A stretch of 60,824 nucleotides of DNA, from the NCBI GenBank assembly GCA_944383695.1, contig CALWQP010000017.1, positions 1 through 60,824 of the forward strand. Direction: 5' to 3'. The stretch's first letter is position 1, and the number at the start of each line of letters is the position of its first letter. The DNA is from an uncultured Mediterraneibacter sp. (lineage in GTDB: Bacteria; Bacillota; Clostridia; Lachnospirales; Lachnospiraceae). Position numbers and translations under genes: made by a program. Positions 3,977 to 51,617 of the stretch are shown here, in pieces. The notes below the pieces were generated by a model, which had not been told where the DNA came from, did no database searches, and was given only the letters and a program-made list of their open reading frames with translations.

Positions 3977-4342
3977 ATGTCAAGCAGCCAGGAATTCGTT
4001 CAATATGCGGCAGACCAGTCTTCCGGAGCAGGCAGGATCACATATCGAAAAATGTTCGGGGAATACGGAATGTACTGTGACGGCAAGATTTTCGCTCTGA
4101 TCTGCGACGACCAGTTTTTTATCAAGATCACAGAAGCAGGCAGGCATCTTGCCCCTGGACTTGCGGAAGTCCCTCCCTACGAGGGGGCAAAACCATACTT
4201 TCTTATAGAAGATCTGGATGACAGAGATTTTCTCACTGAATTTATAACCGCCACATGCAGAGAACTGCCCATACCAAAGCCAAAAAACAAAAGAAAAAAG
4301 ACTGATACCGTCCCAAAAAGGAGGAAACGAAATGACATTTGA
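3977..4342 (+). CDS. TfoX N-terminal domain protein.
   Basis: FVQYAADQ...MFGEYGMYCDGKIFALICDDQFFIK is typical of the TfoX_N fold. RBS is AAAGGAGG. Confidence 0.7.
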   Translation: MSSSQEFVQYAADQSSGAGRITYRKMFGEYGMYCDGKIFALICDDQFFIKITEAGRHLAPGLAEVPPYEGAKPYFLIEDLDDRDFLTEFITATCRELPIPKPKNKRKKTDTVPKRRKRNDI

Positions 4343-36172: not shown

Positions 36173-36706
36173 TTATACTGCTCTATTCAGCGTATCCTGC
36201 ATCAGACAATAACTGATGATAGCGAATCCTACAAATCCCAGAATCAGGTAAAGGATGCCTGAATTCCCGCTCATACCTTTGATCCTGTCACAGCGCTCAC
36301 CCATCTTGTAAAGCCAGTACAGTGCATAGATTCCGCATGTGATAATTGAGAGGAGAAGTACGATCCCTCCGGACGTTGCATTAGGCTCGCCGGACAGTAT
36401 ATTGACTTCATCGTTTAATTTGATCATCCAGTAAATCCCATAAATCCCGCATGTGATAAGAGTTAATATAATACACAGGGGGATGCTTCTCGGTGTGATT
36501 CCAAACTGGGATGCCGAATAATTCTGCGGGCGGCCGTAATCAGCTCCACTGCCATACTGCTGTTGTGTATTATTATACTGATTCTGCGCATTATTATACT
36601 GGCCCTGTGCATCGCTGTACTGCTGCTGCGGAAGAGGAGTCCCGCATTCCGGACAAAAAGTAGTATTGTCATCGCATTGCTTGTTGCATTTCATGCATAT
36701 TTTCAT
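36173..36706 (-). CDS. Zinc-ribbon protein with a Q/N-rich low-complexity linker and a C-terminal DUF4234 membrane domain.
   Basis: CMKCNKQ...CPECG; QQQYSDAQGQYNNAQNQYNNTQQQY; and CGIYGIYWMIKLND...CGIYALYWLYKMG (duplicated DUF4234 motif). RBS is AAGGAGAAAT. Confidence 0.65.
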   Translation of the reverse strand: MKICMKCNKQCDDNTTFCPECGTPLPQQQYSDAQGQYNNAQNQYNNTQQQYGSGADYGRPQNYSASQFGITPRSIPLCIILTLITCGIYGIYWMIKLNDEVNILSGEPNATSGGIVLLLSIITCGIYALYWLYKMGERCDRIKGMSGNSGILYLILGFVGFAIISYCLMQDTLNRAV

Positions 36707-36717
36707 ATATTTCTCCT

Positions 36718-37185
36718 TTATAATATCTGCCAGAATCCCTCCGGTGCCAGCAGTGTAAATGGAAATACCGGGATATTCCTCAGTACCCCATATATCAACA
36801 CGACTACCAGCACTCCGGTAAGGAACTTGACATTGATTTTCTTGTCTATATGATTTCTGCCGGTAATGATCCAGTCCAGTGCGCGTGCTGCAATGTACAG
36901 CCCGATCAGCGGAAGGAGGGCTGTCATAAGCGGGTTATAACAGAAGGCATCCAAAAACCTCCCATGCAGGATAGAATAGCAGGCGCGGCCCGTGCCGCAC
37001 CCTGGACAGTACAGTCCTGTTACTGAGTTAAAAACGCATACCAGAGGAACTCCCTGGGGTGTAGAAAAGTACAGGTACAGTGCCGCGGCACATACCGCAG
37101 CCGCGGCGCATACTGCCACTCCAATCCTTGCCTTTCTGCTCTCACGAAGCCGGCTGCCCATATATCTATATTGATCTCTCCACAT
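36718..37185 (-). CDS. DUF2752-family membrane protein.
   Basis: The CPGCGTGRACYSILHG motif is typical of DUF2752. Its start is 3 nt after the upstream stop. Confidence 0.65.
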   Translation of the reverse strand: MWRDQYRYMGSRLRESRKARIGVAVCAAAAVCAAALYLYFSTPQGVPLVCVFNSVTGLYCPGCGTGRACYSILHGRFLDAFCYNPLMTALLPLIGLYIAARALDWIITGRNHIDKKINVKFLTGVLVVVLIYGVLRNIPVFPFTLLAPEGFWQIL

Positions 37186-37188
37186 GGC

Positions 37189-37845
37189 TTAATAATAATA
37201 ATAGTAAGTGCCTTCATAAATCAGGCTTCCAACCGCCACAGAAATAATCATTGAAACAACAGCCGCTGCAGCTGCTACTATAAGCCAGATTTTTGCCATC
37301 TTTGCTGCTTTTTTTGCCGCTTCCATATCCCCTGCAGTTACTGCACTGTTAATCTTGGCAGAATATACGATCGCAACTATACCAAACGGTATAGCTAATG
37401 AACAACAGCATATTGTAGAAATAACCGTTAAAACAATTGACATAACCAAATATGGCGTTCCATTGACCAACTCTCCCTGCCCCTGCTGATAAGGCGCCTG
37501 ATAATTTCCATTCTGATAATTATTTTGGTAGCCGTTCTGGTAATTATTCTGATAGCCATTCTGATAATTATTCTGCTGGGCATCATTCTGATAGCCGCTT
37601 CCATATCCGGATGTTCCCTGATAACCAGCGTTATAGCTCTGCGTATCCTGATACTGCATGCTTGTTTCCGGCTGTACAGTATCCGGACGCACATTCTCCT
37701 CCGGCTGCACGGTATTTGGCTGAGCTGCCGGTTCTGCCTGCGTATCCGCCGTCCCTGTCTCCGGCACTGCCACCTGCGCAGCGCCGCAGTAAGGACAGAA
37801 CTTGGATCCGTCCGGAATTTCCTGATAACATTTAATACAATTCAT
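37189..37845 (-). CDS. Zinc-ribbon protein with a Q/N/Y-rich repeat linker and a C-terminal CD225/dispanin (IFITM-like) membrane domain.
   Basis: CIKCYQEI...CPYCG; the NYQNGYQNNYQNGYQNNYQNGNYQ repeats; and ...CCCSLAIPFGIVAIVYSAKINSA... (CD225 motif region). Confidence 0.65.
   Translation of the reverse strand: MNCIKCYQEIPDGSKFCPYCGAAQVAVPETGTADTQAEPAAQPNTVQPEENVRPDTVQPETSMQYQDTQSYNAGYQGTSGYGSGYQNDAQQNNYQNGYQNNYQNGYQNNYQNGNYQAPYQQGQGELVNGTPYLVMSIVLTVISTICCCSLAIPFGIVAIVYSAKINSAVTAGDMEAAKKAAKMAKIWLIVAAAAAVVSMIISVAVGSLIYEGTYYYYY
37505..37585 (-). repeat. In-frame tandem nucleotide repeats (CTGATAATTATT-like units) that encode the NYQNGYQ repeats of the CD225 protein.
   Basis: tctgataattattttggtagccgttctggtaattattctgatagccattctgataattattctg. 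Confidence 0.7.
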
Positions 37846-37980: not shown

Positions 37981-38598
37981 TCAGCCAAGTGTATGCGCCG
38001 TTTTCGATCCCGCTGAATGTATCATGCCGGTTTTCATCAGCACCGGACGCAGTGCGTTGTACAGTACGCCCACCAGCAGGACAGAAACCACTGCATTGAC
38101 AAACGTGGTGGCTGTGCTCCACTTTGCAAGGACTTCCGCCATCTGCTGAGGCTGCCCGAGAATATACAGCTTATAGAAATACCCCGCCAGCGGGTCTGCG
38201 ATCACATTGAAGCCAAGGCCTGCTACTGAGGCGAGCACACTCCAGCGTAAAATATATTTTTTGTCAGCGCTCTCGTTGATCCTGGCAATACGGTGAGCAA
38301 CCAGCCCTGCGATCAGCCCGATGCACAGCTTGAGCACAAACGTCTTCGGCGCCCCGACGATATACACCGGATCGAGGATATCAGCGATCGTCATGCCGAC
38401 CGCTCCCGCCAGGCCACCGTACCAGCCGCCCAGGATAAGCGCTCCCAGCACGCAGAATGCATTTCCGATATGGAGAGACGTGGCGTCTCCCCCGGGCATC
38501 GGTATCTTGATCTGCAAAAATGTAAACGATACAAAACAAAGAGCAGCCATCAGCGCTGTCTGTGCAAGCTTTCTCACAGTTTCATTTCTTTTTTCCAT
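37981..38598 (-). CDS. ECF transporter S component (substrate-capture subunit; substrate unknown).
   Basis: Five to six TM segments with the pattern ...LHIGNAFCVLGALILGGWYGGLAGAVGMTIADIL.... RBS is AAGAGGA; start is at MEKRNE. Confidence 0.65.
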   Translation of the reverse strand: MEKRNETVRKLAQTALMAALCFVSFTFLQIKIPMPGGDATSLHIGNAFCVLGALILGGWYGGLAGAVGMTIADILDPVYIVGAPKTFVLKLCIGLIAGLVAHRIARINESADKKYILRWSVLASVAGLGFNVIADPLAGYFYKLYILGQPQQMAEVLAKWSTATTFVNAVVSVLLVGVLYNALRPVLMKTGMIHSAGSKTAHTLG

Positions 38599-38693
38599 GT
38601 AAATGTCCTCTTTTCCTGTCATTGATACAGGTATATTAACATTGATCTGGTCATATTAAAATGTCCAGTTGTGAGTTTTTTGCACATGCCAGT

Positions 38694-41429
38694 TTATTCA
38701 TCTTTTCCAAGCCGCACCCGCTCCATTTCTCTTGCGTCATCTTCTTCGAGATGATCAAACAGATAATGACTGAGCCGACCGCTTTTGCCGAAATGCTCTG
38801 ACTTAAGTTCTTTCCGGGCAAGTTCGACTTCTTCTTTTAACCCCGCGGCAGACATTCTCCGGGCGCCCTGTCCCAGGATGATGACCTGCTCCAGCGCGTC
38901 TGAGGTGGCAACCGTCACTTCATGATGCCTTGAAATCCTTCTCACGGTCTTTTCTATATACTGGTCCGCTGTCTCTGCTTCTCTCGTATACACGATATGG
39001 ATGTTGTGATACCGGGCCACTTCCCCCGGATTCCCCTCCACCTTATAGGCGTCAAACACAAGGATCAGCGTGCATTGCCGACAGCCCTGGTAATCGCACA
39101 GGATGTCAGCCAGCTTTCCCCGCGCCGCCGCAAGGTCCGCTTCAGAAAGCTCTCTCAGTTCATCCCACGCAAAAATGATATTGTATCCGTCTACGAGAAG
39201 ATATTCTTCACGGTCTCCTTTCGTCTTCCTGCGTACGCTGCCGAATCTTTCTCCATTTTTATCAGACGCTCCGTTCCTTGCTGTTCCGCCGTCCCCGGAA
39301 AAATCCGCCGACACGGTCACCGGACGGCTGCTGGCCTTCCTCTTCACCGGATCAGGAGTCCGGACATAGATCGCATCCAGCTCCTCCTGGGTCAGCTCGA
39401 CCGTATGCCTCACCGGGCGCACTGCTGCCACAGGCGCCAGCTCCTGACCGGAGACTGTCGCTTTTACCCCGCTTTCCACATGCATGTGTTCTTCCACCTC
39501 ATACCATGGCACGATAATTCCCGCACCGTGGGAACAAAACACAGAATCCGCTGTATTTTCCACATCTGCGTCTGCATCATACCCGATCCTGCTGACTACT
39601 TCCTCACTGTTATGGCAGACGTCGTAGCCCTTGAGTGTGCAGAACATCCTCCCAAATCCTCCTGTGTACGCGGCAAATTCTTTCTGATATCCCCGCATTT
39701 CCGACACCGGAGCGCAGCCTGTCAGCACTGCCTGCCCATTCTCCGCCTCAGGTCCTTTAAAGCTGCCATTCATCCGCTGGATATCGGACATCGCCCGCCC
39801 CACATTTTCCATAGGAAGCTCCATGCGGAACTCATAATAGGGCTCCAGCAGAAGACTCTCTGCTTTCCGCAGCCCCTGACGGACCGCCCGGTAAGTCGCC
39901 TGACGGAAATCTCCGCCCTCTGTATGTTTCTGATGTGCCCGCCCGGTCAGGAGTGTGATCCGCATATCCGTCACTGCTGACCCTGTCAGGACTCCCTTGT
40001 GTTCTCTCTCTTCCATGTGAGTCAGGATCAGCCTCTGCCAGTTCCGGTCCAGGACGTCCTCGGCACATTCCGATAAGAACTGCATCCCGTACCCCCGCTC
40101 TCCCGGCTCCAGCAGAAGGTGCACCTCTGCATAATGACGGAGCGGCTCAAAATGCCCGATGCCTTCCACCGGAGCTTTGATCGTTTCCTTGTAGACAATA
40201 TTTCCTTCTCCAAAACCGATGAGCACGCCAAAACGTTGTTTCACCATCTGTTGGAGGACTTCTGTCTGCACCTCTCCCATGAGCTGGATGTGTATCTCAG
40301 ACGTCTCCTCCGCCCATACTACATGGAGCTGCGGCTCTTCTTCCTCGATCTGCCGGAGATTCCTGAGCATTGTATGCACATCGCACCCATCCGGCAGTTC
40401 GATCCGGTATGTAAGCACCGGCTCCAGCACCGGCAGCTCCGACGCCTTTTCACAGCCAATCCCCTGCCCGGGATGTGTATCTTCCAGCCCGGTCACAGCG
40501 CACACTGTCCCTGCCTGTGCCTCCTGCACCATCTCGTATTTCTCGCCGGAATAAATCCGGATCTGGTTGACTTTGCCCGGAACGTCCGGAAGCGACTCCT
40601 TCACCCGCAGGACACCGCCCATTATCTTAAGCCAGGTCAAACGGTTCCCCTGAGCGTCACGGGATATCTTATATACTTTCGCGCCAAAATCCTGTCCATA
40701 CTGCGGGCAGGGGGAGAGCTCTGTAAGCCCATCCAGCAGTTCTGTGATCCCCTCTGCCCTCAAAGCTGATCCGAACCAGCACGGGAAAACCTTTCGCTCA
40801 GACACTCCCCTGCGCAGCGTCTCTCTCCCGACGGTGCCCTTCTCCAGATATTCTTCCAGCATAGCTTCGTCACAGACAGCCAGGCTTTCTATCTTATCCT
40901 CATCACCGGCATAAACCCCTTCAATGTCTGCACACCCCTCGCCAAACCTTTCTCGCAATTTTTCCATGAGTTTTTCCCTGTCCGCGTCATCCCTGTCCAT
41001 CTTATTGACAAAGAGAAACACCGGGATCTCATACCTTTTCAAAAGCCTCCAGAGCGTCAGGGTATGGCTCTGTACACCGTCAGCCGCATTGATCACGAGC
41101 ACCGCGCAGTCCAGCACTTGAAGCACACGCTCCATCTCCGCAGAAAAATCCACATGTCCGGGAGTGTCAAGAAGCGTTACTTCCATATCCTTCCACTGGA
41201 ACATCGCCTGTTTAGAAAAGATCGTAATGCCGCGTTCCCGCTCAAGTTCGTATGTATCAAGGAATGCATCCCCATGATCCACGCGCCCCATGCTGCGTAT
41301 CCGGCCGCTCAAATAGAGCATGCCCTCTGTCAATGTGGTCTTGCCCGCATCTACATGAGCGAGAATCCCGATGCAGATATGCCTTTCCCCTGCTGTCTTA
41401 TTTTCTTTATTGTCAGACGTATTTCCCAT
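38694..41429 (-). CDS. Fusion protein: a complete TetM/EF-G-like translational GTPase (G domain plus domains II-V, about 640 aa), a low-complexity basic/Ser-rich linker, and a C-terminal YacP/Rae1-like NYN (PIN-like) ribonuclease domain.
   Basis: G1 AHVDAGKTT, G2 RGITI, G3 DTPGHVDF, G4 NKMD. Domain II reads GAKVYKISRDAQGNRLTWLKIMGGVL, like Tet(M) [25 protein letters not shown]. The C-terminus EYLLVDGYNIIFAWDEL...LVFDAYKVEG...IVYTREAETADQYIEK...VTVATSDALEQVIILGQGARRMSAAGL aligns with B. subtilis Rae1/YacP along its length. The start at MGNTSD (41429) has the RBS GGAAAGGGG. Confidence 0.8.
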   Translation of the reverse strand: MGNTSDNKENKTAGERHICIGILAHVDAGKTTLTEGMLYLSGRIRSMGRVDHGDAFLDTYELERERGITIFSKQAMFQWKDMEVTLLDTPGHVDFSAEMERVLQVLDCAVLVINAADGVQSHTLTLWRLLKRYEIPVFLFVNKMDRDDADREKLMEKLRERFGEGCADIEGVYAGDEDKIESLAVCDEAMLEEYLEKGTVGRETLRRGVSERKVFPCWFGSALRAEGITELLDGLTELSPCPQYGQDFGAKVYKISRDAQGNRLTWLKIMGGVLRVKESLPDVPGKVNQIRIYSGEKYEMVQEAQAGTVCAVTGLEDTHPGQGIGCEKASELPVLEPVLTYRIELPDGCDVHTMLRNLRQIEEEEPQLHVVWAEETSEIHIQLMGEVQTEVLQQMVKQRFGVLIGFGEGNIVYKETIKAPVEGIGHFEPLRHYAEVHLLLEPGERGYGMQFLSECAEDVLDRNWQRLILTHMEEREHKGVLTGSAVTDMRITLLTGRAHQKHTEGGDFRQATYRAVRQGLRKAESLLLEPYYEFRMELPMENVGRAMSDIQRMNGSFKGPEAENGQAVLTGCAPVSEMRGYQKEFAAYTGGFGRMFCTLKGYDVCHNSEEVVSRIGYDADADVENTADSVFCSHGAGIIVPWYEVEEHMHVESGVKATVSGQELAPVAAVRPVRHTVELTQEELDAIYVRTPDPVKRKASSRPVTVSADFSGDGGTARNGASDKNGERFGSVRRKTKGDREEYLLVDGYNIIFAWDELRELSEADLAAARGKLADILCDYQGCRQCTLILVFDAYKVEGNPGEVARYHNIHIVYTREAETADQYIEKTVRRISRHHEVTVATSDALEQVIILGQGARRMSAAGLKEEVELARKELKSEHFGKSGRLSHYLFDHLEEDDAREMERVRLGKDE

Positions 41430-41468
41430 AGAAAATACCCCTTTCCGTTTTATAATCATACATCCGTA

Positions 41469-41497: not shown

Positions 41498-41699
41498 TAA
41501 AGCATTCCTCATACTCAGTAAACAATTTACAACTTTAACACCATTCTATTCTTTTGTTAGATTTATTGTTTCAATCATAATATTTGTTTATTCCACACCT
41601 GCATCTTATATTTTATATAACTGCTTTCTTTGGAACCGCAGAAAGCTGCCTGCTCGCATATGGGCGAGGAAATCCGTACAAATATACTTTGTACGTTTC

Positions 41700-42389
41700 T
41701 CAGTCTCCCACTCCGAAATCCGTATTTTCATAAAGGACTTCCACCACCGGGTCTTCCCGCAGCCACTCGTATTCCCGGACAAACCACTCCACCAGCTCCG
41801 GATCCTGACGGATGGGCGTTGTATTGTCCGTAAATACATTAATTGTCCCAAGCCGGAAATATTTCTTCAGGATCTGTATATCTGTGTCGATCATCTGCTT
41901 GGTCTGTCCCCGGATCCCGACCATAATGCAGGGAGAGTCAAAATATTCTGCCACTTCCTCCGGCGTCTTAAAATCCGCATGCTTGTTGAGCACCTTTTCC
42001 CGAAAATCATTGTCAAACGTTTCCACGCCAATCTTATAAGTGATCGGAACACCCATAAAATACCGCATTTCCTCAAGGTGTTTTCGGTACATCCAGTGGC
42101 TTTCAAAAAACAGCCGCCCAATGCCCTTCTTTCGGACCACTTTTCTGATCTCCTCTCTGGTGCCGGCGGGCAGTTCAAAACAGCTTCCCGAATTGATGAC
42201 TTCCAGTACTCCCATTTCCCCGGTGACCCGGGAGAGAATGTGGGAATTGAGCGCCAGCATCTCGTGCTCGTTCCGGGAGTTGTCATCAATATAATCGCAG
42301 AAGGTACATTTTCCCCACGCGCAGGGGTAGGACTTTAGCAGCACGATTTCCCGTTGATTCTTCTCCCGGATCACATTATACCTTTCCAT
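41700..42389 (-). CDS. Small radical-SAM-like Fe-S protein with an unusual Cx4Cx2C motif; a candidate queuine lyase (QueL-like) of the queuosine salvage cluster.
   Basis: YPCAWGKCTFCDY cysteine triad near the N-terminus; 229 aa; last gene of the preQ1-riboswitch operon. RBS is AAAGGGGA. Confidence 0.5.
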   Translation of the reverse strand: MERYNVIREKNQREIVLLKSYPCAWGKCTFCDYIDDNSRNEHEMLALNSHILSRVTGEMGVLEVINSGSCFELPAGTREEIRKVVRKKGIGRLFFESHWMYRKHLEEMRYFMGVPITYKIGVETFDNDFREKVLNKHADFKTPEEVAEYFDSPCIMVGIRGQTKQMIDTDIQILKKYFRLGTINVFTDNTTPIRQDPELVEWFVREYEWLREDPVVEVLYENTDFGVGD

Positions 42390-42951
42390 CCGCGCGTCCC
42401 CTTTGCAAATGCATTTTCAGTCGGCTCCCAAGGCTTGCCGACAGCGCCAGCACCATCAGCACTGAGATCAGCCGGTCAGCATAATCCGTCACGATCTGTA
42501 CGAGAAAGGCGCTGACCGTCATGTTCAGACCAAGGTGGTAGAAAAGCTGAACGAGCAGGGAGGAACCGGAGGACGTCACGCCGCCGAACACAAATGCGGA
42601 AACAGACGCGCTCATCGCGGTCCCGGGCACAGTCAGAGCCAGACTTCCGGGAACCACCTTCCAGCCTTTTAACAGCCCTCTCCGGAACAGCAGACCCGAC
42701 ATCAGACCCGTGACCGCGCCCGCCGGCATAAAATACAGGGAATAGATATCCGTTGTCATTCCGGTGATCAGACCACTTCCCACAGCAGCAGCCATCCCAT
42801 ACCATGGTCCCATCAGAGCGCCTGCCAGGATGGTTCCGATGCTGTCCAGATAGATGGGCAGCCGCAACATCAGCGCAAGATCCGCTCCCACAATATTCAC
42901 AACAATGCACAGCGCTGCCACGGACAGGCACAATATATTAGTTTTTTTCAT
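42376..42951 (-). CDS. ECF transporter S component, QueT-like (queuosine/precursor transporter candidate).
   Basis: Five to six TM segments, Gly/Ala-rich helices. Sits between a nucleoside hydrolase and a radical SAM gene under a preQ1 riboswitch. RBS is GAGGAG. Confidence 0.55.
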   Translation of the reverse strand: MKKTNILCLSVAALCIVVNIVGADLALMLRLPIYLDSIGTILAGALMGPWYGMAAAVGSGLITGMTTDIYSLYFMPAGAVTGLMSGLLFRRGLLKGWKVVPGSLALTVPGTAMSASVSAFVFGGVTSSGSSLLVQLFYHLGLNMTVSAFLVQIVTDYADRLISVLMVLALSASLGSRLKMHLQRGRADGKV

Positions 42952-43936
42952 ACCGTATCTTCTCCTCTGTCATGATCTGCCCAAGGATTTTCCTGATCTC
43001 TCTTACGTCTCCTCCGCAGAGCCGTTCCAGAAACAGCTCCATAAATCCTCTCTCATCCACCTCTGCCAGTATATGGCTGTTGGGTTCTTTTTTCCAGAAA
43101 TTTTCCCTGTCCACCAGTGTCTGTCCAATGGATATGCCCTCTGTCTCCACCGCGGTATAAGCGTCAAAGCCCTGGCATAAATGGGGCTTACACATATATG
43201 CCACTGCCAGAGGATCATTGATGACACAGCCGATGAGCCCTTCCTGCTTCCAGTGGAAATCAAGATAAAAACGGGTGATTTCCTCCGTAAATCCCCCCAC
43301 CCTTTGGTTCAATCGTTTCATATACTCCAGCAGATTGGGCGTCAGGACGATTTTTCTCGTCACATCCAGCCCCACCATATTAATGGGTGATGTCAGCTTC
43401 TCATAGACATATGCCGCTGCGTCCGGGTCACACCAGTAATTATACTCCGCTACGGGGGAACAGTTGCCGTGGCTCTTATAGCTGCCGCCCATGGATACCA
43501 GTTCATCCAGATTTTCAAAAACCTCCGGCTCTTTTTTAAGCGCCAGCGCCACGTTAGTCAGCGGTCCGATTGCCAGCAGGGAGATCCCTTTCTCCTTTTT
43601 CAGTGTATCCAGAATAAATTCCACTGCCTGGGGATGTATCTTCTCATCCTGCACATCCTCAAGCCCGGATTCTCCCAGCCCGTCTTTCCCATGGGTATCC
43701 TGGGCGCTGATATACTCCCGCCTCAGAGGCTTATCTGCTCCCTGATATACCGGGATATCAAGCCGCCCCATAAAACGCAGCACTTTCAGGGCATTTTTTG
43801 TCCCCAGATCTACCGGAACATTGCCGCACACCGCAGTAATGCCCACCACCTCAAGTTCCGGAGAGGACAGCGCGAGCATCAGAGCCAGGCTGTCATCAAT
43901 CCCCGGATCGCAGTCAATGATTACTTTTTTCTTCAT
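42938..43936 (-). CDS. Nucleoside hydrolase (IU-NH family); a candidate queuosine hydrolase.
   Basis: The N-terminal VIIDCDPGIDDSLALMLAL is the DXDXXXDD Ca-binding fingerprint of nucleoside hydrolases. The start at MKKKVII has the RBS GAGGAAAGGAAGG. Confidence 0.85.
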   Translation of the reverse strand: MKKKVIIDCDPGIDDSLALMLALSSPELEVVGITAVCGNVPVDLGTKNALKVLRFMGRLDIPVYQGADKPLRREYISAQDTHGKDGLGESGLEDVQDEKIHPQAVEFILDTLKKEKGISLLAIGPLTNVALALKKEPEVFENLDELVSMGGSYKSHGNCSPVAEYNYWCDPDAAAYVYEKLTSPINMVGLDVTRKIVLTPNLLEYMKRLNQRVGGFTEEITRFYLDFHWKQEGLIGCVINDPLAVAYMCKPHLCQGFDAYTAVETEGISIGQTLVDRENFWKKEPNSHILAEVDERGFMELFLERLCGGDVREIRKILGQIMTEEKIRYEKN

Positions 43937-43977
43937 AGTCCTTCCTTTCCTCATTCTCAAAAATAACGAGAAAAAAG

Positions 43978-44011
43978 CCATGCCCTTTTCTAAGGACATG
44001 GCTGACAGCGC
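43978..44011 (-). terminator. Intrinsic terminator forming the expression platform of the preQ1 riboswitch. Its 5' arm contains UCCUUAG, complementary to the riboswitch 3' tail CUAAGGA (an anti-terminator alternative).
   Basis: Minus strand reads AGCCATGTCCTTAGAAAAGGGCATGGCTTTTTTCT. Confidence 0.7.
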
Positions 44012-44041
44012 CGGAAGGCGCACTTTTCTGCAATTGTATCC

Positions 44042-44075
44042 TTAGTTTTTTATACTGGGAAGTTCTCGAACCAGT
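44042..44075 (-). promoter_or_regulatory. preQ1-I riboswitch aptamer (34 nt).
   Basis: Minus strand reads ACUGGUUCGAGAACUUCCCAGUAUAAAAAACUAA, against B. subtilis queC ACUAGG-type AGAGGUUCUAGCUACACCCUCUAUAAAAAACUAA. Same length, identical 3' tail UAUAAAAAACUAA, conserved GGUUC and CCC, and P1 with compensatory changes (ACUGG/CCAGU versus AGAGG/CCUCU). Confidence 0.85.
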
Positions 44076-44112
44076 CCGGGGCAATCCCCGGGTTCCAATG
44101 CAATTCCGGTTA

Positions 44113-44141
44113 AGTATACCAGAACAGCACAGCCTTTGCAA
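44113..44141 (-). promoter_or_regulatory. sigma70 promoter of the riboswitch operon (TTGCAA-17-TATACT).
   Basis: Minus strand reads TTGCAAAGGCTGTGCTGTTCTGGTATACT. The TSS is about 30 nt upstream of the aptamer. Confidence 0.65.
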
Positions 44142-44197: not shown

Positions 44198-45601
44198 TCA
44201 GAACCGGAAGTACCTGACTGCATTGTCGTAGCAGATATCCTTTATCAGTTTTCCAAGCACCCTCCGGTCGTGGGGATATTCTCCATTGTCCACGATGGTT
44301 CCGATATAATTGCACAATATCCTGCGGAAGTATTCATGCCTGGGGAAGGACAAAAAGCTTCTTGAATCAGTGAGCATCCCGATAAAGGAGGAAATCAGCC
44401 CCACGTCAGAGAGCGCCTTCATCTGATTCTCCATCCCGTTTTTGTGGTCGCAGAACCACCATGCACTCCCAAGCTGCACCTTCCCCCGGATTCCCTGGGA
44501 GTTGGACTGGAAATCCCCTGCCATGGCAGCGAGCATCTCCGCATCCTTCGGATTCAGATAGTACAGCACTGTCTTTGGCAGCTTATCCTCCCGGTCCATA
44601 GCGTCGAGAAGGGCTGACAGCTGAGCCGCATAGTTGAAATCATTCAGGCTGTCCAATCCGCTGTCCGGGCCAAGCTTTCGGAACATCCTCGTGGAATTAT
44701 TGCGGAGCGCCCCGATATGGAGCTGCATGACCAGGTTTTTCTGTGCGTATTCTTTCCCCAGTTCTGTCAGGAGAAAGCCTCTGTACTTTGTACATTCTTC
44801 CTCCGTGAGTTGTTTTTCCTCAAGCTTCTTCCGATAGATCTGATCCGCTTCCTCATAAGAGGAGGGCAGGTAAAAGGAGCTTTCCAGACTGTGGTCGCTA
44901 ACCCGGCATCCGGCTTCTGTGAAATACTCCAGCCGCTGCTTCAGCCCATTAATGAGCTCCTCCAGAGATTCCGGCATCTTCCCGGTCACTTTGCCCAGCT
45001 TCTCAATGTAAGCCGCAAAATCCGGCTTCTCGATGCCCAGCGCCTTCTCCGGGCGGAAGGTAGGCAGCACCTGGATTTCAAAGGCATCCTCCTTAAGCTT
45101 TTTATGCCAGCACAGGTCATCCGCAGGGTCGTCTGTGGTGCACAGCACCCGGACGTTCTGCATCCGAAGGAGGCTGCGCGCGGAATATCCGGGAGATGCC
45201 AGCTTTTCATTGCACCGCTCCCATATTTCCCGGGCAGAATCCGGAGTGAGCACTGTGTTAATACCAAAGTAGCGTTTCAGCTCCAGATGGGTCCAGTGGT
45301 AGAGCGGGTTGCCGATGGCATTCTGGACAGTATCCGCCCATGCAATGAATTTTTCGTACGAATCGCCGTCTCCTGTGATGAGATACTCGGGAATCCCATT
45401 TGCGCGCATTGCCCGCCATTTATAATGGTCCGCCCCAAGCCATATGTCCGTGATCGTGCCAAAGGAGGCGTCCTCGCAGATTTCCTGTGGATTCAGGTGA
45501 TTGTGAAAATCCGCTATGGGCATCTCTTTCGCAAAATCGTGGTACAGTTCCTTTGAGGTCTTCGTGCTCAGCAGAAAATCATCATTCATAAATTCTGTCA
45601 T
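44198..45601 (-). CDS. uxaC: Glucuronate isomerase.
   Basis: Full-length similarity to E. coli UxaC (MTEFMNDDFLL..YHD.AK..PI.D.H.HL, ...GNPLYHWTHLEL..., ...SFLSY.RHEYFRRILC...). Confidence 0.95.
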   Translation of the reverse strand: MTEFMNDDFLLSTKTSKELYHDFAKEMPIADFHNHLNPQEICEDASFGTITDIWLGADHYKWRAMRANGIPEYLITGDGDSYEKFIAWADTVQNAIGNPLYHWTHLELKRYFGINTVLTPDSAREIWERCNEKLASPGYSARSLLRMQNVRVLCTTDDPADDLCWHKKLKEDAFEIQVLPTFRPEKALGIEKPDFAAYIEKLGKVTGKMPESLEELINGLKQRLEYFTEAGCRVSDHSLESSFYLPSSYEEADQIYRKKLEEKQLTEEECTKYRGFLLTELGKEYAQKNLVMQLHIGALRNNSTRMFRKLGPDSGLDSLNDFNYAAQLSALLDAMDREDKLPKTVLYYLNPKDAEMLAAMAGDFQSNSQGIRGKVQLGSAWWFCDHKNGMENQMKALSDVGLISSFIGMLTDSRSFLSFPRHEYFRRILCNYIGTIVDNGEYPHDRRVLGKLIKDICYDNAVRYFRF

Positions 45602-45613
45602 ATCCCGCTCCTC

Positions 45614-47227
45614 CTATACATATTTCTCCAGTGTTGCCCTCACTGCTCCAGGTCCGGCGATCATTTCTTTAAAATATCCGCAAACCTTCTCTGCCATTCC
45701 CACCTGATAGAGATTTACTCCGAAAATAGATTCATTTTCAAGAATGGGCTTTAATATCTCCTCTGCGTTCACATCCTGTCCAAGCCGGATATGCTCCACC
45801 CGCGGGCATACGGTTCCAAGCAGGGGGTCCGGGCTGAGTTCAAAGGGCTTTCCGGCATCATCCACTCCCATCAGGTAGCGAAGCCATCCTGCGAACACAA
45901 GGGGGATGAGCTTCAGGCTGTCCACGGACAGTTTGTCAGAAGCGGCATATGCTTTGACCGTCTCCCCAAAACGGATAGCCAGCTTTTGAGAAGTATCTGT
46001 GGCTATGCGCTGGGGCGTATCCGGCATGAATGGGTTGGGGATGCGGACATTCACCACTGTGTCCAGGAACTTCTCCGGGTCAAGGATTCCCGGGTCGACC
46101 ACCACAGGAAGCCCTTCTTTATAGCCGATGCCCTCCACCAGCTTCTTTAGCGTCTCGTCTTTCATCTCCTCGGAAATGAGCTCATACCCAAGCACACACC
46201 CGAACACTGCCAGCGCCGTGTGAAGGGGGTTAAGACAGGTGCAGACTTTCATCTTCTCCACCTTGTCGACTGTCTCCCGCTCTGTAAACATGAGACCGCC
46301 TTTCTCCAGCCTGCTCCTCCCATTTGGAAATGCGTCCTCGATTACCAGATACTCACATTCTTCCGCGTTGACAAAAGGCGCAATATATGTGTTCTTCCCG
46401 GTGACTACCGGTTCCGGCGCTTCCACGCCGTCTTGTCTTAGCATCTCCTCCACAGATGGGTCCGGACGGGGCGTGATCTTATCGATCATCGTCCATGGGA
46501 ACGAGACTTTCTCTCTGTCCTTTACATAGGCTGCAAACCCGGCTTGTGCCAGCCCGCTCTGCTCCCATTTCTCCGCAAATGCGCGGACTGCCTCGTACAG
46601 CTTTGTGCCGTTGTGGGAACAGTTGTCCATGCTCACCATAGCAATGGGTTTTTTGCCTGCAAGGTAACGTGTATAGAGAAGGGATGCGACTTTTCCGATA
46701 TAGCTCTCCGGCTTTTGAGGACCGGACTGCATATCCTTTGAGACAGCCGGAAGGAGCGCCCCGCTCCCATCAGTTAAGCTGTAGCCTTTTTCCGTGATAG
46801 TAAAGCTTGCCATCTGGAGGGAATCCGCTGAGAAAATCTCGTTCAGGCGCCCGAAGTCCTTCTGGTCGCCGGAATCCAATGTAAGCGACTCCACAACACT
46901 TCCCACCACCGTCTTTTCCACCGTGCCGTCTGCTTTTAAAGTGACAAGGATGCTGTATCCGTCATGGGGATGGTTCATTTTTTCGATGATTTCATAGTCA
47001 TAGCCTTCCGCAACGATCAGTCCTGTATCAAGTACCCCTTCATTTAACAGGTTCTGCACTACATTTGCCTGAAATGCCCGAAAGATATTGCCCGCGCCGA
47101 AATGAATCCATTCCGGCGCATTCTTTGTCCTCTCTGCCACCAGATCCCGGTCATAACGTGGGAGAGAATAGCCCTTGCTCTCCCACTCCTGTCTGTTTTT
47201 CAGTCCCTCTTCGTTTAAACGCATCAC
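45614..47227 (-). CDS. uxuB: Long-chain mannitol-dehydrogenase-family oxidoreductase; probably fructuronate reductase (D-mannonate oxidoreductase).
   Basis: WIHFGAGNIFRAF Rossmann N-terminus and the mannitol_dh N-terminal and C-terminal domains. Lies between uxaC and uxuA. Confidence 0.7.
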   Translation of the reverse strand: MMRLNEEGLKNRQEWESKGYSLPRYDRDLVAERTKNAPEWIHFGAGNIFRAFQANVVQNLLNEGVLDTGLIVAEGYDYEIIEKMNHPHDGYSILVTLKADGTVEKTVVGSVVESLTLDSGDQKDFGRLNEIFSADSLQMASFTITEKGYSLTDGSGALLPAVSKDMQSGPQKPESYIGKVASLLYTRYLAGKKPIAMVSMDNCSHNGTKLYEAVRAFAEKWEQSGLAQAGFAAYVKDREKVSFPWTMIDKITPRPDPSVEEMLRQDGVEAPEPVVTGKNTYIAPFVNAEECEYLVIEDAFPNGRSRLEKGGLMFTERETVDKVEKMKVCTCLNPLHTALAVFGCVLGYELISEEMKDETLKKLVEGIGYKEGLPVVVDPGILDPEKFLDTVVNVRIPNPFMPDTPQRIATDTSQKLAIRFGETVKAYAASDKLSVDSLKLIPLVFAGWLRYLMGVDDAGKPFELSPDPLLGTVCPRVEHIRLGQDVNAEEILKPILENESIFGVNLYQVGMAEKVCGYFKEMIAGPGAVRATLEKYV

Positions 47228-48294
47228 GATCTGGCTCCTTTCTCAATGGCTTCCCACAGCCCGTTTATATATGTGGCGCCCAGCGCCCGGTCATAGAGGC
47301 CGTATCCGGGCATTGCCACCTCGCCCCATATCATTCGCCCATGGTCTGGTCTGATAGGGCCGTTAAATCCAATCTCATACAGCGCTTTGACGATCTCGTA
47401 CATATCAAAGTTCCCATCCGAGGAAAGGTGCGCCGCCTCCTCAAAATTCGTGGGTGAATGGAATTTCAGGTTGCGGACATGGGCAAAATGGATTCTCCCT
47501 TTCAGCGAGCGTATCATGTCCGGCAGGTCATTTTCCAGATTGGTGCCGTATGAACCGGAGCAGAAGGTAACGCCGTTATGGGGGTTGTCCACCATCTTCA
47601 TCAGGCGCAGGATATTCGTTTTATTAATGATGATCCTGGGCAGCCCGAACACGCTCCATGCAGGGTCATCCGGGTGGATCGCCATATTGATGTCATACTG
47701 GTCGCAGACCGGCATGATGCGCTCAAGAAAATATTTCAGGTTGGCAAACAGCTTCTCGCCATCAATGTCTCGGTACATTGCAAAAAGCTCTTTCACACGC
47801 TCCATCCTCTCCGGCTCCCACCCGGGCATCACTGTCCCGTTCATGTCTCCGGCAATAGAGTCAAACATCTTTTCCGGATCAAGGGCGTCTACAGCTTCCT
47901 GGGTGTAGGCAAGGACTGTGGAGCCATCCGGACGCACCCGCGCCAGCTCTGTCCTCGTCCAGTCAAAGACCGGCATGAAATTGTAACACACAAGATGAAT
48001 GTCCTCCTCGCCGAGATTTTCCAGTGTCTGAATGTAGTTGTCGATATACTGATCCCTTTCCGGTGCCCCTGTCTTGATGGCGTCATGAACGTTCACGCTC
48101 TCGATCCCGGCTACATGGAGCCCGGCTTCTTCTACCTCTGCTTTCATGGCCCGAATCCGCTCTCTGCTCCACACCTCGCCTGGGGCAGTGTCATACAGCG
48201 TTGTGATCACGCCTGTCACGCCCGGTATCTGGCGTATCTGCTGGAGCGTCACTGTGTCAAATTTGCTTCCGTACCATCTTAAAGTCATTTCCAT
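47224..48294 (-). CDS. uxuA: Mannonate dehydratase.
   Basis: MEMTLRWYG...; full-length UxuA similarity (xylose isomerase-like TIM barrel). Confidence 0.9.
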   Translation of the reverse strand: MEMTLRWYGSKFDTVTLQQIRQIPGVTGVITTLYDTAPGEVWSRERIRAMKAEVEEAGLHVAGIESVNVHDAIKTGAPERDQYIDNYIQTLENLGEEDIHLVCYNFMPVFDWTRTELARVRPDGSTVLAYTQEAVDALDPEKMFDSIAGDMNGTVMPGWEPERMERVKELFAMYRDIDGEKLFANLKYFLERIMPVCDQYDINMAIHPDDPAWSVFGLPRIIINKTNILRLMKMVDNPHNGVTFCSGSYGTNLENDLPDMIRSLKGRIHFAHVRNLKFHSPTNFEEAAHLSSDGNFDMYEIVKALYEIGFNGPIRPDHGRMIWGEVAMPGYGLYDRALGATYINGLWEAIEKGARS

Positions 48295-48312
48295 ATGTCT
48301 GTATCTTCTCCT

Positions 48313-50127
48313 TCACTTCTTATATTCGAAATCCGGTATACTATGCCACCTGTCCCTGAAATAGTGGGCGGCAAGCTTTGGCTTTCTGTCCCTTGTAAAA
48401 ATCCCCTTTTTGTTGCCCTGGATCCTGAGAAGGCTCTGGCTTGTGGCAAAGTCCGCAAAGTTCCAGACCTGCTCTCCGATCACGAAATCATAGTCATCGA
48501 ACACTTTGTTGTTCATTTTGTAATAATCCAGCTGATATTCTTCCGTGTACATGACTGGCGTGGTGTCATGCATCCCCATGACAGTGTCCGCGCCGTATTC
48601 TGTGAAGATCACAGGTTTTCCGATCTCTCTCCACTGATCCAGCTCCGCGCGCAGCGCCTTCTCCGGACCTTCCAGGTCGGGTCCCCCGAAGTACCAGCCA
48701 TAGTAACGGTTCAGGCAGATCACGTCACTGAGCTTTGAGGAACAGTCTGTCTGGGGCGTGGTCGCCATCTGCACGCTCACCAGTGTACAGGGGCGCTTCT
48801 GGGGATCCAACTCCCTCGCCAGTTCATAAAGGGGGGCAAAATATTCATACGCGCCCTCTCCGGCAGAATCCGGCTCATTGGCAATGCTCCACATAACGAC
48901 GCAGGCATGGTTCTTATCCCTGGCGATCAGTTCTCTTATGACGTCCTTGTGGTGCTCCTGGGTCTGCACTCCGTGCTCTTTATCATATGTGCCGATCTTC
49001 TGGCCGTTAAAGTTCGCCCCTCCGCCGAATTTAAGGTTGATGCCTACCGCTGTCGTCTCATCGATGACTACAAAGCCTTCTTCGTCGCAGAGCCGCATCA
49101 TCTCCTCGCTGTATGGGTAATGGCTTGTGCGGAAGCTGTTTGCCCCCTGCCACTTCATCAGCGACATATCCTTTGTATTCATGGGAAGATTCATGCCCCT
49201 TCCATTTGGGAATGTGTCCTCATGCCTGCCGTAGCCTTTGAAATAGAACGGTTTTTCATTGATCAGGAATTTCATTCCCTCTACCCGGACTGTCCTGACA
49301 CCGTAGGGCAGAGTGTACACGTCACTTCCAAACGTGACCTTTACATCATAGAGATATGCGTTGAGCGGCTGCCACAGGCGTACATCCCTGATTTCCAGCA
49401 CGCCTTGTTCTCCCTCTGCCTGCGCCGCAAGATTCCCATCTCTGTCAAACACCTCCACTTTGCACGCGCCCTGTCCCACAGTCTCCACCTGATAAGTCAG
49501 ACGCGCGGTCGTGCCGTTCACTTCCGGCACAAGGGAAATGTCCGCGATATAGTCCTTTGGCGTTGTATAGATCTTTACCGGTCTTGTGACTCCGCAGTAG
49601 TTAAAAAAGTCAAAATTCGGATTGTTTTTCGGTTTTCCTGTGTCTGCCCCTGCGCCAAAGCCGGTCATTCCTCCCAGCATATCTGATTTCCCGCCGACCG
49701 GAAGCGTAGTGTAGTCGATCACATTGTTGACCGCTATGGTGAGCAGATTGTCCTTTCCGTCCTCCAGTTTGTCAGTGATCTCCACTTCAAAAGGAAGGAA
49801 GCCTCCTTTATGCTGGCAGATCAGGCTGCCATTCAGATAGATTTTTGCCTCGTGAGTGACCGCCGCACATCGGAGTACAATTCGTTGGTCTTTTACGAAT
49901 GCGGGCATGGAGATGCTTCTCTGGTAGAATACCCATCCGTAATGATCGCGGAAGTCCACTCCTTCCTTCAGGTCGTTGTAGGAAGCCGGGACCGGCATGG
50001 TCATGGGCGCCTCCAGGGGCGCCTTGTACCATTCTTCTTTAAACCCGTTTCCGTCATCCAGTTTAAAATCCCACACTCCGCTTAAATCTGTTAAAAGTCT
50101 TGAAGGTGTCAAAATCGGATACAACAT
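48313..50127 (-). CDS. uidA: Beta-glucuronidase (GH2).
   Basis: GH2 sugar-binding, immunoglobulin-like and TIM-barrel domains. ...NSFRTSHYPYSEE... and ...WSIANEP... are catalytic motifs typical of GUS. Confidence 0.9.
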   Translation of the reverse strand: MLYPILTPSRLLTDLSGVWDFKLDDGNGFKEEWYKAPLEAPMTMPVPASYNDLKEGVDFRDHYGWVFYQRSISMPAFVKDQRIVLRCAAVTHEAKIYLNGSLICQHKGGFLPFEVEITDKLEDGKDNLLTIAVNNVIDYTTLPVGGKSDMLGGMTGFGAGADTGKPKNNPNFDFFNYCGVTRPVKIYTTPKDYIADISLVPEVNGTTARLTYQVETVGQGACKVEVFDRDGNLAAQAEGEQGVLEIRDVRLWQPLNAYLYDVKVTFGSDVYTLPYGVRTVRVEGMKFLINEKPFYFKGYGRHEDTFPNGRGMNLPMNTKDMSLMKWQGANSFRTSHYPYSEEMMRLCDEEGFVVIDETTAVGINLKFGGGANFNGQKIGTYDKEHGVQTQEHHKDVIRELIARDKNHACVVMWSIANEPDSAGEGAYEYFAPLYELARELDPQKRPCTLVSVQMATTPQTDCSSKLSDVICLNRYYGWYFGGPDLEGPEKALRAELDQWREIGKPVIFTEYGADTVMGMHDTTPVMYTEEYQLDYYKMNNKVFDDYDFVIGEQVWNFADFATSQSLLRIQGNKKGIFTRDRKPKLAAHYFRDRWHSIPDFEYKK

Positions 50128-50187
50128 AATGCATTTTCCTCTCTTTTCATAATTATAGTTTTAGCCAATCACTCTCTTAAAATAATT

Positions 50188-51579
50188 TTACGCGTTTTCT
50201 CTTCTCTTCTGGAGCTCGGCTACATTTGCCCTTACCTTGTTCCTTCCAAGAGGATAGAGCACTGCCAGCGCCAGCGCCACTGCTGCAAGCCCCACTGCCG
50301 GGACAATGCAGGATATGCGGAAAATGTTAAGGGTAACATCCGGATCAAAGGCAGTTGCCTGTGTGTAGCCTACCATGCTTACCAGACCTCCCACAAGACC
50401 GGATGAGAGCGCCTGCCCGATCTTGCGGGCAAAAGAGTATACGGAATAGATCGTACCGTCCTCGCGCACTCCGTTTTTTACTTCCGCGTCATCAATAACA
50501 TCTGTGATCATTGCCCATATCACTGTGTTGAAAAATCCCAGGCAGATGTAAGCCAGCGCATAGAAAGCCACATAGACATATGGATTTTCCGGCTGCAGGA
50601 TGAAGCAGATCACATAGACTACTGCCCCCGCAAAGCAGGCAACGGCAGACACTTCCTTCTTTCCGAATTTTGCGGAAAGCTTTGACGCAAGCGGCGCACA
50701 GATCAAAAGAACGCCGATGCTGCCTGCCATGGACGAAACTGACTGCGCCGCAGCCGAACCGTAAAAGTTAGGGAACACATATGCAGCGATTCCCTGCATC
50801 CCGAGCATGGCAAGAAGCAGGAGGATTGCCGCAACGATAATTCCGATCAGGGACCGGTTCGTCACAAGGCTTTTTACAAGGTGCCCTACCTGAAGCTTAT
50901 TTGTATTGGCCGGCACCGGAACCCTCTCCTTTACTAACTTAAAGCAGAGTACATAGCAGATGATGGCGCAGACGCTGAACACTCCGGCGATCGTTGTCAT
51001 GCGGCTTCCGGACATTACTGTGTTGCCGTCTACCACTACATATGCCACCATGGGGGTTCCCACTCCGATAGCAAGCCCTGCCAGCGTTGCGCCGATAGAA
51101 CGCCACGTCGACAGCTGTGTCCTGTGGTCCGGGTCTGCTGACACTGCTGACGCCATTGAACCATACGGAATGTTGATCGCCGTATAGAAAATGGAGCCCC
51201 ACAGAAGATATGTAACGACCATCCATACCACCTTAAATCCGTATGCCATGTCAGCAAAGCCGGACTGGTAGATCAGAAATGACGCGATCGCCACCGGACC
51301 GCACATCCGCTTGATCCATGGTTTGAATTTTCCGTCCTTCGTAGGTTTCGACCGGTCCACGATCTGCCCCATCGTCACATCCGTGACCGCGTCCACAAAC
51401 CTGGATATCATCATCAGGATACCTACTACGACTCCGTCAATACCCATCACATCCGTATAAAACTTCAGCATAAAGCTGGATGACAGGATGAAAGTAAAAT
51501 CATTTCCGAAATCACCGAACATATACCCGAGCTTATCTGCCCATCCAAAAGGTTTAACTTTTGTATTCTCTTGTCCCAT
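50188..51579 (-). CDS. Glycoside-pentoside-hexuronide (GPH):cation symporter (MFS); a glucuronide transporter candidate.
   Basis: KLGYMFGDFGNDFTFILSSSFMLKFYTDVMGI matches the MelB/UidB N-terminal signature; 12 TM. Confidence 0.8.
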   Translation of the reverse strand: MGQENTKVKPFGWADKLGYMFGDFGNDFTFILSSSFMLKFYTDVMGIDGVVVGILMMISRFVDAVTDVTMGQIVDRSKPTKDGKFKPWIKRMCGPVAIASFLIYQSGFADMAYGFKVVWMVVTYLLWGSIFYTAINIPYGSMASAVSADPDHRTQLSTWRSIGATLAGLAIGVGTPMVAYVVVDGNTVMSGSRMTTIAGVFSVCAIICYVLCFKLVKERVPVPANTNKLQVGHLVKSLVTNRSLIGIIVAAILLLLAMLGMQGIAAYVFPNFYGSAAAQSVSSMAGSIGVLLICAPLASKLSAKFGKKEVSAVACFAGAVVYVICFILQPENPYVYVAFYALAYICLGFFNTVIWAMITDVIDDAEVKNGVREDGTIYSVYSFARKIGQALSSGLVGGLVSMVGYTQATAFDPDVTLNIFRISCIVPAVGLAAVALALAVLYPLGRNKVRANVAELQKRRENA

Positions 51580-51617
51580 TTACAATACCTCCTTTTTCCT
51601 CATCCGTAAACCGTATT

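Follow-up and report, generated by a model that had tools for sequence, protein, structure and literature searches.

What is the task of three overlapping genes that stand, in an uncultured Lachnospiraceae bacterium, behind a preQ1-I aptamer, and how does the RNA leader control them? The locus lies within a 60.8-kb stretch of DNA, all of which was analysed and which is called the window here. Downstream of the aptamer lie three overlapping minus-strand ORFs of 332, 191 and 229 amino acids. We read the locus with high confidence as a preQ1-repressed operon for the indirect salvage of queuosine, of the C. difficile kind. This reading starts from what was observed directly: an aptamer, two helices that exclude each other, the families to which the genes belong and a conserved operon order. 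An earlier note on this DNA had already recognized in it a C. difficile-type queuosine salvage set, a view borne out by two published accounts (PMC11477304; 10.1101/2023.12.05.570228) and by a full-length match to the structure PDB 6p78. The sequence features listed in that note are all found where it placed them. A queK-qrtT-queL operon behind a preQ1-I riboswitch is already known from gut bacteria, and the present one is an ordinary copy of it.

The leader belongs to the preQ1-I riboswitch class. On the minus strand, the Rfam model RF00522 significantly matches positions 44036..44080 over all of its positions 1-45 (53.2 bits, gathering score 39, E 5.4e-8); no other Rfam family exceeds its gathering score anywhere in the 60.8-kb window. 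This confirms the 34-nt aptamer described in the earlier note. Its core (44075..44042, minus strand) reads ACUGGUUCGAGAACUUCCCAGUAUAAAAAACUAA. In P1, ACUGG (44075..44071) pairs with CCAGU (44058..44054), making 5 bp with no non-canonical pair, and in the Rfam alignment the conserved positions are all identical to the consensus, including those of the loop and of the A-rich tail. This tail, UAUAAAAAACUAAGG as in the Rfam consensus, comprises the heptanucleotide CUAAGGA (44045..44039), ends at 44039 and can form the P2 pseudoknot. Selective binding of preQ1 is predicted. Directly 5' of the aptamer, a P0 hairpin, CCGGGG-AUUG-CCCCGG (44076..44091, minus strand), folds at -11.6 kcal/mol. A hairpin is kept at this position in related loci with different stems (for example CAGGC/GCCUG, CAGGG/CCCUG and GCGUGCC/GGCACGC). 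The promoter TTGCAA-17-TATACT that had been proposed upstream is present at 44113..44141 (minus strand), with a TG before the -10 hexamer, as a putative sigma-70-like element known only as a consensus match (9/12). A similar ttgcaa...tatact arrangement is found in close relatives, equally far from the aptamer.

The last gene, queL (41700..42389, minus strand), is predicted to encode a radical SAM queuine lyase of 229 residues. When compared with the described queuine lyase, residues 1-229 align to residues 23-251 of PDB 6p78_A ('Queuine lyase') with 53% identity and no gaps (E 7.5e-77). By this homology, the window QueL is predicted to convert queuine to preQ1. Its cysteines are arranged as C23-x4-C28-x2-C31, a spacing which had been regarded as atypical and in need of confirmation. 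That doubt is refuted: the triad is invariant in ten sequences, among them the crystallised queuine lyase 6p78, and Cx4Cx2C is the normal motif of the QueL family, not an oddity. The general radical SAM model, PF04055, has no match in the window QueL even at E up to 1; it is matched by six of ten close QueL homologues (best E 8.9e-7), and many QueL homologues in the databases carry a precomputed match to it. In addition, the archaeosine enzyme model TIGR01210 (RaSEA) matches the N-terminal 135 residues of QueL, including the region of the cysteine motif (E 1.2e-13), with 50.9 bits where the cut-off is 212, over only the first half of its 313 positions. As read from the sequence, queL overlaps the stop codon of the preceding gene by 14 nt. 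The terminator scan gave no consensus terminator downstream of queL. An 8-bp hairpin lies past the gene at 41695..41675, without a good U-tract.

A relative of QueL occurs in 406 stretches of a collection that holds one genome per species. The comparison covered the 80 loci nearest to the window, with no C. difficile locus among them. The order hydrolase - S component - lyase, and with it the neighbourhood of the hydrolase gene, is kept in 72 of these 80 loci, a homologue of the S component standing between the two enzymes. A simple sequence pattern detected the aptamer upstream in 24 of the 80. Of 14 further loci without a pattern match, 11 have it according to Rfam, so that the pattern under-counts; the pattern matches are almost invariant in sequence. 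When a protein search was seeded with the 6p78 sequence, Thomasclavelia spiroformis and its relatives were among the 120 matches listed, and C. difficile was not among them.

The second gene (42376..42951, minus strand) encodes a qrtT-like ECF transporter S component of 191 residues. As read from the sequence, it overlaps the stop codon of the hydrolase gene by 14 nt, with GAGGAG 10 nt before its ATG. Residues 11-170 match PF12822, the cut-off being only just reached (30.8 bits against 30.7). QrtT has been placed in this family (PMC11130926). The protein had been described as QueT-like, but PF06177, the QueT family, gives no match at E up to 0.1, and a QrtT-type assignment takes its place. The only specific NCBIfam model that the S component matches is NF045596, the CD3073 family, full length and with an E-value of 1e-24, but at 87 bits where the cut-off is 180. 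That no other specific model is matched, and this one below its cut-off, and that its name comes from a C. difficile gene which is not CD1683, the one in the operon, would suit a narrower transporter in the same operon. Such a transporter would take up preQ1 alone (or the q base alone), in the manner of one of the two QrtT paralogues of C. difficile, leaving QueK and QueL mostly to recycle intracellular queuosine from tRNA turnover instead of acting on imported Q. We consider this joint reading unlikely. In the operon, the gene stands where C. difficile has an S component supporting the uptake of Q at 100 nM (10.1101/2023.12.05.570228), and a Q hydrolase adjoins the transporter in the 72 loci of conserved order, which points to Q as the form taken up.

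Salvage of the C. difficile kind, the reading we prefer, calls for a hydrolase acting on Q, and the first gene of the operon (42938..43936, minus strand) encodes a queK-like nucleoside hydrolase of 332 residues. It matches PF01156 over residues 5-300 with 330 bits and carries the inosine-uridine hydrolase motif DxDxxxDD as DCDPGIDD at residues 8-15. Translation is assigned to the ATG at 43936, which follows a purine-rich Shine-Dalgarno sequence at 43950..43940. A longer candidate for this gene, a 361-aa ORF from the GTG at 44023, was rejected: it extends across the terminator, and the alignment with the orthologues begins only at MKKK. The protein falls below the NCBIfam equivalog cut-offs of RihA, RihB, RihC and UriH. 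It is 51-74% identical to the queL-linked hydrolases of 69 other loci and 36% identical to E. coli RihA and RihC. The queL-linked hydrolases as a group share a pairwise identity of at least 45% (median 58%), and are 31-38% identical to the same two E. coli enzymes. A QueK subgroup of IPR023186 has been delimited by means of a sequence-similarity network (PMC12632869), and the validated C. difficile QueK is YP_001088185.1 (10.1101/2023.12.05.570228). Since the S component stays well short of the cut-off of every specific family and the hydrolases are only 45-74% identical within their group, a substrate range different from that of the C. difficile system is conceivable for this Lachnospiraceae branch of the operon, in its S component and its hydrolase. 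Q-monophosphates would be one example, other 7-deazaguanine nucleosides set free in the gut another; all would still lead to preQ1, the shared end product sensed by the riboswitch. We regard this combined proposal as very improbable.

The leader between the aptamer and queK would account for the control of a preQ1-repressed salvage operon. The terminator scan located an intrinsic terminator at 43968..44003 (minus strand), made of a 12-bp stem with an AGAA loop followed by UUUUUUCU. The hairpin proper (44003..43976), with its 12 pairs, runs into the U-tract TTTTTTCT; alone it folds at -18.8 kcal/mol, and the full-length leader contains it in its minimum-free-energy fold (-50.0 kcal/mol). Its 5' arm contains UCCUUAG (43990..43996, minus strand), the exact 7-nt complement of the aptamer tail CUAAGGA, and this heptanucleotide can therefore pair either with the tail, forming an antiterminator, or within the terminator stem. 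In a transcript lacking the 3' arm of the terminator, the antiterminator is the minimum-free-energy fold (-38.4 kcal/mol). Folding thus yields two mutually exclusive structures, and the pairing between terminator 5' arm and aptamer tail that the earlier note had suggested is upheld by the exact complement and by the fold of the partial transcript. Within the antiterminator loop, a small hairpin, GCGCC-UUCC-GGCGC (44008..44021, minus strand), appears in all leader folds and is probably merely structural. In 11 related leaders (L001-5, 8, 10, 20, 34, 39 and 46), the terminators all contain TCCTTAG unchanged and the flanks of the terminator stem covary, CCATG/CATGG being replaced by CCGTG/CACGG, CCGCA/TGCGG or TCATG/CATGA. 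Because the aptamer tail is exactly complementary to a segment of the terminator 5' arm, the leader is interpreted as a transcriptional OFF switch. In two related loci, L009 and L071, the first ORF begins just 10 nt past the aptamer and the tail AAGGAG is itself the Shine-Dalgarno sequence, so that translational preQ1-I switches do exist in this operon family. There is nevertheless little chance that the window riboswitch controls translation, by masking the ribosome binding site, rather than transcription termination: about 100 nt separate the aptamer from the Shine-Dalgarno sequence and ATG of queK, which lie beyond the 12-bp terminator and its U-tract, and the sole strong partner of the aptamer tail is the terminator 5' arm.

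That the locus might serve generic nucleoside salvage, with a nucleosidase for pyrimidines or purines, a vitamin transporter and a radical SAM enzyme, both unrelated, and an incidental riboswitch match, is scarcely credible and already contradicted: RihC and RihA are the best named NCBIfam matches of the hydrolase, and RihA and YbeK its best matches among solved structures, but the Rih matches lie far below the equivalog cut-offs with only 36% identity to RihA and RihC, the lyase matches the crystallised queuine lyase along its whole length, the riboswitch exceeds its gathering score by 14 bits, and the four-part arrangement is kept across many genera.

Under queuosine salvage controlled by transcription termination, the reading retained here, the operon would work as follows, where we infer ligand binding, the transported substrates and the activities of QueK and QueL from homology and the literature. 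The QrtT-type S component would dock on an ECF energising module from elsewhere in the genome and import queuosine (Q), queuine (q) and/or preQ1. QueK would split the ribose off Q, freeing q, and QueL, as a radical SAM enzyme with an iron-sulfur site at Cx4Cx2C, would strip the cyclopentenediol side chain from q to give preQ1, which an ordinary bacterial TGT could then put into tRNA. As the product of the pathway, preQ1 would also act back on the leader RNA. When it is bound, the CUAAGGA tail would be locked in the pseudoknot, the 12-bp terminator would form and transcription would end before queK. When preQ1 is lacking, the tail would pair with UCCUUAG of the terminator 5' arm, the terminator would be blocked and the three translationally coupled genes would be transcribed. 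Neither tgt, queA and queG/H nor ecfA/A'/T (EcfA, EcfA' and EcfT, the ECF energising module) were found within the 60.8-kb window.

The practical value of these results is one of annotation. The genes can be named queK, qrtT and queL, in place of the generic labels "nucleoside hydrolase", "ECF S component" and "radical SAM protein", and the start of the hydrolase set at 43936. The locus adds one further example of the indirect queuine salvage used by gut Clostridia instead of de novo preQ1 synthesis, in agreement with published surveys that find QueK and QueL in many species of the large intestine.

The closest known counterpart is the three-gene operon queK-qrtT-queL (CD1682-CD1684) of C. difficile 630, which has a preQ1-I riboswitch upstream (PMC11477304). 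Its description goes back to Yuan et al. 2019 (PNAS), whose work is cited here after PMC11477304 and PMC11130926. The queuosine hydrolase, ECF-S protein and queuine lyase have the consecutive accessions YP_001088185.1, YP_001088186.1 and YP_001088187.1 (10.1101/2023.12.05.570228), and the chemistry leads from Q to q to preQ1 (PMC11477304; PMC11130926; 10.1101/2023.12.05.570228). Compared by family and order, the two systems share the aptamer, a hydrolase of the inosine-uridine family, a PF12822-type S component and a radical SAM queuine lyase in the same succession, as well as, by prediction for the window host, an ECF core encoded elsewhere and the same preQ1 feedback logic. They differ in their hosts, C. 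difficile being one of the Peptostreptococcaceae and the window host one of the Lachnospiraceae. The crystallised lyase, 6p78, is a protein of Thomasclavelia (Clostridium) spiroformis (locus L081). The 53% identity of the two lyases extends over 229 residues without gaps and with the same Cx4Cx2C motif, and the T. spiroformis queL locus also stands behind an RF00522 aptamer; but there, a QueT (PF06177) S component lies upstream of queL with no adjacent hydrolase, whereas in the window the S component is of the PF12822 type and a hydrolase is present. QueL also resembles RaSEA in its N-terminal match, and both act on 7-deazaguanine derivatives, if the predicted activity of the window enzyme is accepted; QueL, with about 80 residues fewer than RaSEA, forms a distinct family.

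At the level of RNA, the window aptamer resembles the preQ1-I riboswitch of B. subtilis queCDEF: a minimal 34-nt aptamer with the same UAUAAAAAACUAAGG tail and a 5' P0 hairpin, whose P1 presumably differs from that of the window through compensatory changes. The B. subtilis aptamer sequence and its P0 reportedly stem from the work of Roth et al. in 2007. The B. subtilis element is a transcriptional OFF switch with a terminator/antiterminator platform like that seen in the window, and it governs the genes of de novo preQ1 synthesis, whereas the window switch would govern those of salvage.

The leader of the operon carries a preQ1-I aptamer. An Rfam scan of the whole window places RF00522 at 44080..44036 (minus strand) scoring 53.2 bits where 39 is the threshold (E 5.4e-8), the sole match above gathering score in the 60,824 bases. 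The alignment spans all 45 model positions and P1 contains no non-canonical pairs, which bears out the aptamer proposed from sequence in the earlier note. Its 34-nt core (44075..44042, minus strand) reads ACUGGUUCGAGAACUUCCCAGUAUAAAAAACUAA. A promoter-like site, TTGCAA-17-TATACT with a TG ahead of the -10 hexamer, is found at 44141..44113 (minus strand); it is promoter-like by consensus only, matching at 9 of 12 positions. Immediately 5' of the aptamer there is a 6-bp hairpin, CCGGGG-AUUG-CCCCGG (44091..44076, minus strand), which presumably corresponds to the P0 stem of the B. subtilis queC leader; in related leaders the equivalent site likewise forms a hairpin, with different stem sequences.

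A 12-bp terminator hairpin (-18.8 kcal/mol alone), followed by UUUUUUCU, occupies 44003..43968 (minus strand). Two alternative helices are evident in the leader sequence, since the aptamer tail CUAAGGA (44045..44039) can pair at every position with UCCUUAG (43996..43990), which lies within the 5' arm and loop of the terminator. Folding agrees with the terminator/antiterminator arrangement proposed earlier: when the 3' arm of the terminator is omitted, the minimum free energy structure pairs the tail with UCCUUAG in a 9-bp antiterminator (total -38.4 kcal/mol), and the full-length leader favours the terminator (-50.0 kcal/mol versus -42.5 with the antiterminator forced). The same design recurs in 11 related leaders (L001-5, 8, 10, 20, 34, 39 and 46): all of them keep TCCTTAG unchanged, and compensatory changes mark the terminator stem that flanks it (CCATG/CATGG, CCGTG/CACGG, CCGCA/TGCGG, TCATG/CATGA). 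The complementarity, the alternative folds and these like leaders make a transcriptional OFF switch the best reading of the window copy; its ligand dependence would be expected from its family membership. At two other loci, L009 (about 3341..3400) and L071 (about 4201..4250), the first ORF starts 10 nt past the aptamer and the tail doubles as the Shine-Dalgarno sequence. These platforms probably act on translation, and therefore both transcriptional and translational preQ1-I platforms appear to exist within one operon family.

The first gene encodes a nucleoside hydrolase of 332 aa (43936..42938, minus strand), with its ATG at 43936 behind a purine-rich Shine-Dalgarno sequence. A longer ORF from GTG 44023 runs through the terminator and was discarded as an artefact of ORF listing. 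The protein matches PF01156 (330 bits), with DCDPGIDD at residues 8-15, and scores under the equivalog cut-offs of RihA, RihB, RihC and UriH. The queL-linked hydrolases are at least 45% identical to one another (median 58%), whereas their identity to RihA and RihC of E. coli is just 31-38%, and thus form a coherent group tied to queuosine genes rather than generic Rih-type enzymes. The gene that follows, for an ECF S component (191 aa, 42951..42376, minus strand), shares 14 nt with the end of the hydrolase gene, stop codon included, and is preceded by GAGGAG as its ribosome-binding site. The transporter had been called QueT-like; it is instead of the QrtT type, as it matches PF12822, although it barely attains the threshold (30.8 versus 30.7), and a Pfam search gave no match to PF06177 (QueT). 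The sole specific NCBIfam model that it hits, for the CD3073-family S component, is matched end to end (E 1e-24) but with 87 bits, the cut-off being 180. The hydrolase is putatively assigned to the QueK subgroup, and the S component grouped with CD1683, from their gene context and from indirect comparisons.

The third gene, queL (229 aa, 42389..41700, minus strand), overlaps the preceding one by 14 nt. Its product aligns from first to last residue, without gaps and with 53% identity (E 7.5e-77), with chain A of PDB 6p78, deposited as "Queuine lyase", a radical SAM protein of Thomasclavelia spiroformis. The triad C23-x4-C28-x2-C31 had been considered atypical. It is invariant among ten aligned family members, 6p78 included, so that Cx4Cx2C is what this lyase family normally carries. 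In a Pfam search the window lyase itself had no PF04055 match, and 6 of 10 close homologues had one; a match to TIGR01210, the archaeosine radical SAM family (E 1.2e-13), covers the N-terminal half of the window lyase.

Across 185,579 species, each represented by one genome in the collection scanned, 406 stretches encode a QueL relative, the closest (85%) being that of Candidatus Scatomonas merdavium, also of the Lachnospiraceae. Among the best 80 of these 406, which were fetched, 72 have hydrolase and S-component homologues ahead of queL in the same order. A strict pattern search located the upstream aptamer at 24 loci, and Rfam located it at 11 of another 14. In the remaining three (L011, L012 and L013) nothing reached the gathering score of RF00522, preQ1-II or preQ1-III; L012 and L013 retain the hydrolase-S component-lyase order, and L011 retains the S component and lyase with no hydrolase match. 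In T. spiroformis no hydrolase gene adjoins queL, which lies behind RF00522 and an S component of the QueT family (PF06177); lineages thus differ in the transporter that accompanies the lyase.

The operon is flanked upstream by a cluster for the utilisation of glucuronate and mannonate and downstream by a gene for an EF-G-like GTPase, neither of them queuosine-related. In a Pfam survey of the window's other large ORFs, tgt, queA, queG/H, queCDEF and the ECF core genes were all absent. The hexuronate/glucuronide cluster (44198..53327, minus strand), directly upstream of the riboswitch promoter on the same strand, comprises uxaC, a mannitol-dehydrogenase-family gene, uxuA, a GH2 beta-glucuronidase-like gene, an MFS_2 transporter and a GH3 gene. 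Inspection by eye of the ~57 nt that separate the -35 hexamer from the uxaC stop (44198) showed no terminator-like hairpin, and therefore read-through into the riboswitch leader is possible. Downstream, 38694..41459 (minus strand) encodes a 921-aa fusion protein that combines a translational GTPase (residues 25-618: GTP_EFTU and EF-G domains III, IV and C) with, at the C-terminal end, an NYN nuclease domain like that of YacP (residues 754-916, PF05991, 174 bits). Its best NCBIfam match is the tetracycline ribosomal-protection family (429 bits versus a cut-off of 775); with its RNase domain of the Rae1/YacP type, this EF-G/Tet-like factor could be a nuclease that acts on ribosomes. At 37981..38622 (minus strand) lies the gene for a second ECF S component, which is of the riboflavin type (PF07155, 121 bits), with no Rfam riboswitch nearby at gathering score. 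EcfA and EcfT genes are absent from the window, in keeping with an energising module that is shared and encoded at another site. Further along the minus strand are three consecutive genes for small membrane/zinc-ribbon proteins (36173..37845: CD225 plus zinc ribbon, DUF2752, and DUF4234 plus zinc ribbon) and a 715-aa ORF (28867..31014) that matches no NCBIfam model and resembles Peptidase_M29 only in part (residues 439-627, 54.5 bits).

In C. difficile, a preQ1-I riboswitch lies upstream of the queK-qrtT-queL operon (CD1682-84); QrtT imports preQ1, queuosine (Q) and queuine (q), QueK hydrolyses Q to q, and QueL converts q to preQ1 (PMC11477304). That species has two QrtTs, one carrying preQ1 only and the other preQ1, q and Q; QrtT is assigned to PF12822, and QueK and QueL plus transporters are frequent in large-intestine species, replacing queDECF (PMC11130926). 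In C. difficile the accessions of hydrolase, ECF-S and lyase are consecutive, and these proteins are reported to bring about Q salvage when expressed in E. coli (bioRxiv 10.1101/2023.12.05.570228). The observation made in the earlier note is thus confirmed and its interpretation supported, with two corrections, the QrtT-type transporter and the cysteine motif. The window operon matches the queK-qrtT-queL system of C. difficile part for part, and is a copy of an already known, widespread queuosine salvage system.
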